64,000 bases of DNA from Cupriavidus sp. (GTDB lineage: Bacteria > Pseudomonadota > Gammaproteobacteria > Burkholderiales > Burkholderiaceae): assembly GCA_031180665.1 (NCBI GenBank), contig JAPSLP010000001.1, positions 295,259-359,258 of the forward strand, given 5' to 3'. The position numbers and the translations under genes were made by a program. The notes below the pieces were generated by a model. The model did not search any database, was not told where the DNA came from, and saw only the letters and a list, made by a program, of their open reading frames with translations. How positions within the stretch are numbered: position 1 is the first letter of the stretch; each line of letters opens with the position of its first letter. This document shows, piece after piece, positions 49,326 to 49,601 of this stretch.

Positions 49326-49435
49326 GCCGGCAGCATAGGTAGCCGTAAGCATCGCTGCAATCCTGTAGAGATGTCTACAACATGCCTTTCCCGCCGCACC
49401 GGCTCACCGGCCCGCGTGGGCTATACTCGCCTCCG

Positions 49436-49486
49436 ATGGATACGAAGCCCAACACGCCGACCCGGCAATATTGGTGGCGCGCCTGA
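49436..49486 (+). CDS. Trp-containing leader peptide [16 protein letters not shown]
   Basis: ATG GAT ACG AAG CCC AAC ACG CCG ACC CGG CAA TAT TGG TGG CGC GCC TGA, starting 9 nt after a TATACT -10 (49422-49427). Confidence 0.8.
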
Positions 49487-49524
49487 CCCAGGCGGCCCGT
49501 TTCCATACGCACCTCGAAAACGCG

Positions 49525-49558
49525 ATGCCGCCAGCCTCCTGGCGGCATGTTCGTTTCT
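49525..49558 (+). terminator. Attenuator terminator hairpin upstream of trpS
   Basis: ATGCCGCCAG-CCTC-CTGGCGGCAT (perfect 10-bp stem) followed by GTTCGTTTCT. Confidence 0.7.
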
Positions 49559-49601
49559 GCGCACGGTGGCTGGTGGTGTCGACAACCCGAAGCACCAGCC
49601 C

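Follow-up and report, generated by a model that had tools for sequence, protein, structure and literature searches.

What regulates the second trpS gene of a Cupriavidus sp. genome? The gene is located within a stretch of 64,000 nucleotides of contig JAPSLP010000001.1 (GenBank assembly GCA_031180665.1), which was analyzed as a whole and is further referred to as the window. It is preceded by a short open reading frame (ORF) with two adjacent Trp codons, by an intrinsic terminator and by several mutually complementary segments. We consider it likely, judging from the sequence and its relatives, that these elements form a ribosome-mediated attenuator that senses charged tRNA-Trp and controls a spare tryptophanyl-tRNA synthetase (TrpRS). 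The elements, in the numbering of the window, are as follows.

49422..49427, forward strand: −10 promoter box TATACT, read from the sequence; the predicted transcription start is at about 49434–49436
49436..49486, forward strand: leader peptide ORF of 16 aa with its stop codon TGA (49484–86); the Trp codons occupy 49472–49477
49476..49485, forward strand: strand 1 (GGCGCGCCTG), which pairs with strand 2 in the minimum free energy (MFE) fold of the naked RNA
49489..49502, forward strand: strand 2 (CAGGCGGCCCGTTT), which pairs with strand 1 or strand 3; its core GCGGC is at 49492–96
49518..49534, forward strand: strand 3 (AAACGCGATGCCGCCAG), the 3’ partner in the antiterminator and also the 5’ arm of the terminator
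49525..49558, forward strand: intrinsic terminator with a 10-bp stem (49525–34/49539–48), loop CCTC and tail GTTCGTTTCT (49549–58)
49568..49579, forward strand: strand 4’ (GGCTGGTGGTGT), complementary to 49525–36 and, alternatively, to 49593–49600
49593..49600, forward strand: partner of strand 4’ in the start region (CACCAGCC), which ends one base 5’ of the trpS AUG; taken from MFE folds
49602..50618, forward strand: trpS paralogue, 338 aa, TrpRS-II type (TIGR00233 at 244 bits)

The TATACT box, the ATG, the ORF, the hairpins and the terminator had been named in a first-pass annotation made from the letters of the window, and all of them were found in place by direct reading and by a terminator scan. 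The scan covered positions 49000–50900 and yielded a single site, 49525–49548.

Comparative data

The 80 loci of the closest trpS homologues served as the comparative set. The geometry of the leader was measured over 54 loci, and a covariance model was built from 52 leaders. The secondary structure was considered in three ways: by equilibrium folding with ribosome masks, by folding of the RNA present before strand 4 is made, and by forced-state folding, where the 3:4 or the 3:4’ helix was imposed and the probabilities that the start region is unpaired were compared.

Predicted alternative helices of the leader

The stop codon of the leader ORF is flanked by CGCCTG (49480–85) and CAGGCG (49489–94), and GGCGGC (49491–96) is complementary to GCCGCC (49527–32). 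From such segments the first-pass annotation had composed a complete attenuator with helices 1:2, 2:3 and 3:4. All three complementarities are kept in the relatives, and the terminator has compensatory changes; this agrees with the logic proposed. The antiterminator and the 1:2 helix proved to be longer than described. The former is extended by pairing of CGTTT (49498–502) with AAACG (49518–22), and the latter, by pairing of GGC (49476–78) with 49495–97. Strand 1 starts at the 3’ end of the second Trp codon, takes in the codons for Arg and Ala and reaches the TG of the stop codon.

Three segments are invariant in all 52 aligned leaders: GCGGCC in strand 2, GCCGCC in strand 3 and GG[C/T]GGC in strand 4. 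These cores are mutually complementary. Every one of the 52 sequences pairs at the antiterminator core GCGGC/GCCGC, which never varies; pairing reaches 69% in its CGTTT/AAACG extension, where some compensatory changes occur. For the 1:2 helix, pairing amounts to 82% across these sequences, without covariation. Since invariant cores cannot covary, we infer pairing within the 1:2 and 2:3 helices from complementarity and position.

The position of the core relative to the ORF is nearly fixed. Counted from the first base of each codon, the distance to GCGGC is 8–9 nt for the stop codon (50 of the 54 loci) and 17–18 nt for the second Trp codon (49 loci). The stretch shielded by a ribosome extends roughly 12–13 nt 3’ of the first base in the A-site codon. 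Given this footprint, a ribosome at the stop codon would cover strand 2, and a ribosome at UGG would expose strand 2 and cover strand 1.

For the fold of the 172-nt leader the z-score is −2.84, and one of 200 shuffled sequences folds equally well. When the ribosome was represented by a mask, equilibrium folding favored the terminator in every ribosome state. As this calculation cannot discriminate between the states, folding of the RNA made before strand 4 was used instead. At that stage the probability of strand 3 being paired equals 0.70 for a ribosome on UGG and 0.41 for one on the stop codon, a difference in the expected direction; for the window alone, 0.62 and 0.34 were obtained. The MFE structure of the window with a ribosome mask at UGG contains the 2:3 helix at −14.1 kcal/mol. 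Because the terminator wins at equilibrium whatever the position of the ribosome, the switch has to work kinetically. So does the E. coli trp attenuator, in which the terminator is likewise favored at equilibrium.

Terminator and strand 4’

The terminator hairpin at 49525–49548 has the sequence ATGCCGCCAG-CCTC-CTGGCGGCAT. It is present in the 54 loci, 32–45 nt after the stop codon of the leader. In the alignment, 91.8% of the cells of this helix are paired, compared with 28–65% when the partner is slid. Compensatory changes occur at two positions, with UA and CG exchanged (31 vs 20 sequences) and also AU, UA and GC pairs observed.

Strand 4’ is located twenty nucleotides 3’ of the terminator. 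It may form 12 bp, three of them G-U, with the 5’ arm and loop of the terminator (49525–36). Alternatively, in MFE folds, positions 49568–75 form an 8-bp hairpin with 49593–600. The two partners are similar, as 7 of the 9 bases at 49592–49600 are identical to the terminator apex CCGCCAGCC (49528–36). Taken by itself, the window gives no significant complementarity between strand 4’ and the start region (p=0.25); this pairing is supported by the Massilia-type leaders and by forced-state folding, both described below. As for the terminator apex, 85% of the 54 loci have a complementary strand that scores better than shuffled controls (p<0.05), and the two segments change together: CCAGCC is found with GGCTGG, CCAGTC with GACTGG, CCGGTTCC with GGAACCGG, CCTCGATTC with GGATCGAGG, and CCCCTGTC with GGTAGGGG.

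In the MAFFT alignment of leaders from Burkholderiaceae and Herbaspirillum, the apex:4’ helix is 93.7% paired, compared with 21–63% for slid partners. It covaries between AU and GC (19/6) and, at a loop position, between CG and UA (11/9). MAFFT alignment of the Massilia-type leaders gives 94% pairing with three compensatory pairs. In these leaders strand 4’ has a second partner, CUCGAU, that includes the AU of the start codon; this second helix is 92% paired, with GC replaced by AU in part of the set (9 vs 6 sequences).

Forced-state folding indicates how the choice of the partner might affect the start of trpS. In all 26 Burkholderiaceae-type leaders, the probability that the start region is unpaired rises from 0.36 with 3:4 imposed to 0.60 with 3:4’ imposed. 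The two states are on average isoenergetic in these leaders (−38.0 vs −37.4 kcal/mol); in the window 3:4 is more stable by 13.5 kcal/mol (−43.9 vs −30.4 kcal/mol). For the Massilia-type leaders the effect on the start region is small (0.57 vs 0.62). The covariation of strand 4’ with the terminator suggests that read-through and the start of trpS translation may be coupled.

One could go further and assume that the attenuation is mainly translational, so that a stalled ribosome exposes the start region of trpS, and the hairpin is chiefly a decoy causing little termination. Several observations agree with this scheme. The U-tract of the window is imperfect (GUUCGUUUCU) and weaker than those of its relatives, the 95% identical copy from C. 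cauae having ATTTTCGTTTCT where the window has ATGTTCGTTTCT; some Janthinobacterium copies have kept the hairpin and lost the U-tract. Further, trpS has no recognizable Shine-Dalgarno sequence and is preceded by the 8-bp hairpin, and strand 4’ covaries both with the hairpin apex and with the start region. However, most of the 54 loci retain behind the hairpin a T run that a pure decoy would not need, the influence on the start region in the Massilia-type copies is modest, and the precedent from Streptomyces is transcriptional. On balance we regard mainly translational control as unlikely and retain attenuation of transcription, whose weight appears to vary between lineages, since some Janthinobacterium copies lack the U-tract.

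Leader ORF and its promoter

Direct reading of the sequence places the ATG at 49436, 8 nt 3’ of the TATACT hexamer, with no Shine-Dalgarno sequence before it. No match for the −35 element was found in the window. TATACT is kept in all copies from Burkholderiaceae and Herbaspirillum. The Massilia-type copies have TTGACA-17-AACCAT instead, with a perfect TTGACA and the distance to the ORF unchanged. The end of the −10 box and the ATG are separated by 6–7 nt in 52 of the 54 loci and by 8 nt in the window. As the −10 box ends only 6–8 nt 5’ of the ATG, the leader mRNA is probably leaderless or carries no more than 2 nt of 5’ UTR, with the start of transcription predicted at about 49434–49436.

The UGG-UGG pair forms codons 13–14 of the 16-codon leader ORF. 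The encoded peptide is 16 aa long in 45 of the 54 loci, and all gaps inside the ORF in the alignment of 52 leaders are multiples of three. The ATG, the length of about 16 codons and the in-frame TGG TGG are kept despite very divergent peptide sequences; thus, the Massilia peptide MNFLNPHISFCNWWRR differs from that of the window in sequence, while frame and length are held. An ORF that starts with ATG and ends with ...WWR[A/R/H]*, followed by a terminator, precedes trpS in about 60 of the 80 closest homologues. Two proposals of the first-pass annotation, a leaderless ORF and a Trp-Trp leader peptide, are supported by the relatives, the former by the spacing given above and the latter by an in-frame TGG TGG near the end of the ORF in about 60 loci. 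In the one RefSeq record inspected (Burkholderia pyrrocinia) this ORF is not annotated, and the plasmid gene tables used are incomplete.

Two other ORFs were rejected. The second ORF with Trp-Trp, which begins at 49547, has no ATG in C. cauae. The ORF at 49525–49605 (MPPASW...), whose ATG lies in the terminator arm, has none in the Massilia-type copies; its TGA overlaps the ATG of trpS. As neither frame nor start is conserved, both seem to be by-products of constraints on the RNA.

Conservation of the leader ORF bears also on another possibility, that the ORF is not translated and the leader RNA serves as a binding site for a protein or uncharged tRNA, in a TRAP-like or T-box-like manner. Blocks of invariant RNA sequence might be expected in such a case, and translation of the ORF is predicted from its sequence. 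Against it stand the conserved start, length, TGG-TGG frame and stop position of an ORF whose peptide sequence is free, as well as the indels in multiples of three. The search of positions 48800–50200 against Rfam with E-values up to 10 found no T-box, no Trp_leader (RF00513) and no other family; sub-threshold matches to DUF3800-XI and SAM-SAH were attributed to chance. Moreover, in Janthinobacterium, where the stop codon is shifted and the ORF extends across strand 2, the arrangement still fits the ribosome model. We consider recognition by a protein or by uncharged tRNA very improbable and take the translating ribosome as the probable sensor.

Proposed model of regulation

From the sequence elements, their conservation, geometry and covariation, all of which are observed directly, we infer where transcription starts, that it terminates, in which direction regulation goes and how translation is involved, as follows. 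Transcription would start at the leader AUG or not more than 2 nt away from it. The ribosome would read the 16-codon leader while RNA polymerase adds about 110 nt more. With ample charged tRNA-Trp, the ribosome would reach the stop codon and cover strand 2, and after its departure strand 1 would re-pair with strand 2. In both cases strand 3 would be available to strand 4 for the terminator, and the majority of transcripts would end near 49555. When charged tRNA-Trp is scarce, due to Trp starvation or to inhibition of the housekeeping TrpRS, the ribosome would stall at UGG-UGG, hiding strand 1 and exposing strand 2. The 2:3 helix would then form first, the terminator would not appear, and polymerase would read through into trpS. 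The product would be a Trp-free TrpRS-II, which can be made when Trp-tRNA is limiting.

The second layer is less certain. Strand 4’ may pair either with the 5’ arm and loop of the terminator or with the start region of trpS. In a transcript that results from antitermination, the open apex would capture strand 4’ first, leaving the start region free. In a transcript that results from leaky read-through, the terminator hairpin would be closed and strand 4’ would mask the start region, yielding a silent transcript. The terminator apex would thus act as a decoy of the trpS start region, with strand 4’ choosing between them. In our estimate, it is evenly balanced whether the locus is such a kinetic switch with two outputs, and a horizontally mobile module with a leaderless ORF and a Trp-free TrpRS-II, spread over Beta- and Gammaproteobacteria and present, among others, on plasmids of Enterobacteriaceae. 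If so, a single ribosome stall would set both read-through and translatability of the mRNA, and leaky transcripts would stay silent.

The attenuator would account for the spare TrpRS being held off until it is needed. Three features suit a backup for starvation or inhibition: the leaderless sensor ORF, the Trp-free enzyme and a possible double lock on transcription and translation.

The trpS paralogue

The closest structure in the PDB is TrpRS II from Deinococcus radiodurans (1yi8, 2a4m), with 420 bits; ordinary bacterial enzymes, those of Bacillus and E. coli, reach about 126 bits. The HIGH-type (HLGH) and KMSKS motifs are present. The genome contains three genes of class-Ib synthetases, encoding a 413-aa TyrRS, the canonical 400-aa TrpRS and the 338-aa enzyme. 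The canonical TrpRS, which has the betaproteobacterial insertion, is encoded on contig C25, and the window belongs to contig C30. A second TrpRS is also present in nine of the ten other carrier genomes. Both assignments made initially for this gene, to the TrpRS-II type and to auxiliary synthetases, agree with these data, the former by the difference in scores and the latter because a search of the genome for a second trpS found the canonical enzyme.

There are no Trp residues in the 338-aa enzyme or in about 100 members of its clade, compared with seven in the 400-aa TrpRS of the same genome. The enzyme can therefore be made when Trp-tRNA is limiting. This feature, like the strand 4’ tier, was absent from the first-pass annotation.

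At the place of the canonical motif ADWHALT of the 400-aa TrpRS, the 338-aa enzyme has ADSQAMT, with Gln replacing the His of D-x-H-A. Changes of this His give resistance to indolmycin. Resistance of the 338-aa enzyme to indolmycin-type inhibitors may be suspected on this ground, as only a lead. A spare enzyme could serve as backup under Trp starvation or rescue the cell from inhibition of its housekeeping TrpRS; these two uses are not mutually exclusive. Either condition would trip the switch, because both lower the level of charged tRNA-Trp.

Comparison with known systems

The kind of control proposed here is already known, as it has been described in Streptomyces and noted for trpS2 of Salmonella. 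A leader-peptide attenuator was predicted for Streptomyces trpS (Seliverstov et al. 2005, PMC1262725). For trpRS1, an auxiliary gene that confers resistance to indolmycin, ribosome-mediated attenuation is reported by Vecchione & Sello (2010, J Bacteriol 192:3565; ref. 57 in PMC4787780). As in the window, a leader ORF with Trp codons and a terminator/antiterminator pair precede an auxiliary second TrpRS, which in Streptomyces is reported to be induced when charging of tRNA-Trp falls. Unlike the window, the Streptomyces genes belong to Actinobacteria, another phylum, and the likeness concerns the design of the leader. The accessible descriptions of the Streptomyces leaders contain no 4’ strand linking the apex with the start region.

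In Proteobacteria, the nearest parallel is trpS2 (STM4508) of Salmonella enterica, an auxiliary gene with a tandem-Trp leader peptide, likened here by its published description. Its tandem-UGG leader is controlled by attenuation according to the authors, and TrpS2 is up in a miaA mutant, that is, it rises when UGG decoding is impaired (bioRxiv 10.64898/2026.09.09.750475). The copy on the E. coli plasmid pB379_2 (see below) is a related enterobacterial match. In Caulobacter, ribosome profiling revealed a leader coding sequence on the trpS mRNA (PMC4117421).

The leader of the E. coli trp operon, trpL (RF00513), has the same four-strand logic, WWR encoded by UGG UGG CGC, an early stop codon and an intrinsic terminator. 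It differs from the window in controlling biosynthesis genes and in having a 5’ UTR with a Shine-Dalgarno sequence, and the Rfam search gave no match to it here. In the trp leader of Bacillus subtilis, TRAP causes termination, and a hairpin sequesters the Shine-Dalgarno sequence of trpE. There, as in the second layer proposed above, one decision sets both termination and access to the start in read-through transcripts. The sensor in B. subtilis is a Trp-activated RNA-binding protein and not a translating ribosome, and the two leaders have no sequence relationship.

TrpRS II of D. radiodurans is also a second TrpRS, induced by stress (PMC9437257). It can be aligned with the 338-aa enzyme over 331 residues, and no Trp occurs in this part. 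In Deinococcus it functions together with nitric oxide synthase; the genome studied here contains no match to the respective domain (PF02898), whereas the control search finds it in B. subtilis and D. radiodurans. Hence, the partnership known from Deinococcus does not apply.

A literature search found no published betaproteobacterial case of such a trpS leader and no structural analysis of one. Compared with the descriptions that are accessible, the bacterial group, the leaderless geometry, the Trp-free enzyme and the coupling of the apex with the start region appear to be new.

Distribution and mobility

In 63 of the 80 loci the covariance model found the element immediately before trpS and in the same orientation; nine of these sequences had not been used for training. 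The carriers include Burkholderia, Paraburkholderia, Herbaspirillum, Massilia and Janthinobacterium. Among 401 genomes sampled across the order, 13 had matches, and these belong to 12 genera from 6 families. In the genome studied, trp biosynthesis genes included, the element of the window is the only copy; two weak matches in the same genome proved to be ordinary terminators after unrelated genes. It is conservation in 63 of 80 homologous loci, and not any single sequence, that places the element beyond chance. GC-rich hairpins and short ORFs are common in a GC-rich genome, as the two weak matches with their plain terminators illustrate, but a chance ORF next to an ordinary terminator left from a neighboring gene has a negligible probability and seems in practice already refuted, given that the full-length element, scoring 111 bits in the window, recurs upstream of trpS in that many species with differing flanking genes. 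The leaders thus make up a widely conserved family of attenuators in Burkholderiales that is absent from Rfam, and the covariance model may be used for its annotation.

Most Cupriavidus encode a TrpRS-II with 66–68% identity to that of the window, located downstream of an rsmA-like gene and lacking the leader. The window copy is 95% identical to that of C. cauae and 82–87% identical to the copies from Paraburkholderia and Burkholderia, which reside on chromosome 3 or on plasmids. Since TrpRS-II of the same genus mostly shows only 66–68% identity and comes without the leader, the window copy seems to be the Paraburkholderia-like version of the cassette. In the window, trpS lies between chromate (chrBA) and arsenic resistance genes. 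As its neighbors differ between species and the gene is monocistronic, it behaves as a mobile cassette.

An IncFIB plasmid from E. coli (pB379_2) carries a copy (E=8.5e-7) next to IS26, with the leader peptide MNRNVVISHLRRWWLPA, and the synthetase gene matches many records of Klebsiella plasmids. Possible tolerance to TrpRS inhibitors conferred by TrpRS-II is of practical interest for this drug target, because the module adjoins IS26 on the E. coli plasmid and the gene has these matches on Klebsiella plasmids.

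Tryptophan content of the synthetases

No tryptophan residues were found in the TrpRS-II clade examined, comprising the product of the trpS cassette (49602-50618) and its homologues from loci L006-L108 (approximately 100 proteins of about 335 aa). This absence does not depend on the leader, members with and without it being alike in this respect. TrpRS II from D. radiodurans also has no tryptophan in the aligned part (residues 19-348). The canonical TrpRS encoded in the same Cupriavidus genome contains seven tryptophan residues.

Divergent leaders in relatives

In the Janthinobacterium loci L067, L070, L073, L075 and L080 (positions about 2740-2880) the leader ORF extends through strand 2, the segment that pairs with strand 1 or strand 3. 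These ORFs have 23-26 codons, e.g. MNFIQSQHACTNWWSRSLRAATA, and after the hairpin comes GTAACAGG instead of a T run. Rho, or the translational layer, may be what this lineage depends on.

In locus L027 (G029:C1, about 1313-1437), from a low-GC relative belonging to a different family, the leader has just one Trp codon (MNKLTLSATYYKWRP). Its strong terminator with a T7 run is located upstream of a TrpRS-II gene. The match of this leader to the attenuator model, a covariance model built from 52 trpS leaders, is weak (22 bits, E=0.0015).

Three further leaders matched by this model encode peptides rich in Phe, Tyr and Trp, with the motifs ...SFYWYR..., ...FSYWYR... and ...SYYWYR... in the set (genome, contig and positions are given):

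L118, G314:C2:196298-196446, aromatic-rich leader
L120, G393:C1:2957745-2957874, aromatic-rich leader
L123, G189:C6:38233-38380, aromatic-rich leader

The genes downstream are short ORFs of 171-275 aa, none of which contains an HLGH/HIGH-type motif. In tblastn searches the 275-aa ORF of L120 matched the C-terminal part of TrpRS (33% over 88 aa), and the ORFs of L118 and L123 had no TrpRS match. In one genome an aromatic-rich element and a normal trpS cassette share a contig. The ORFs behind these leaders may be degenerate TrpRS-like proteins controlled by aromatic amino acids.

Plasmid copies in enterobacteria

The E. coli IncFIB plasmid pB379_2 (L126, NZ_CP090457.1, 117192-121052) carries, adjacent to IS26, a TrpRS-II cassette that includes both a WW leader and a terminator. 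The search with the synthetase gene matched 64 plasmid records at 60-90% identity, 22 of them from Klebsiella, with Salmonella, E. coli and Shigella also represented; this count refers to matches of the synthetase gene, and the plasmid-borne leader was inspected in one record, pB379_2.

Genomic context

An additional ORF spans the terminator and strand 4' (49568-49579):

49525-49605, plus strand, ORF with its ATG within the 5' arm of the terminator and its TGA overlapping the trpS start codon (ATGA)

Burkholderia copies have a comparable MPPA... ORF, reading GWW or GWR over strand 4'. Massilia-type copies lack an ATG at that site and do not keep the ORF, so constraints on the RNA probably account for it as a by-product.

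The trpS cassette lies in a metal-resistance neighbourhood, flanked by:

46599-49352, minus strand, two chrB-type genes and chrA (chromate efflux)
51902-55844, plus strand, genes for a hemerythrin-domain protein, an ArsR-type regulator, ArsC of the low-molecular-weight phosphatase type and an FMN reductase, which may be arsH

In C. cauae a TctC-family gene is the left neighbour of the cassette instead. A low-complexity run, GGCGGAGGAGGAGGCGGCGGAGG..., occupies 49262-49320 at the 5' end of chrB (minus strand) and encodes an N-terminus rich in Ala/Ser.
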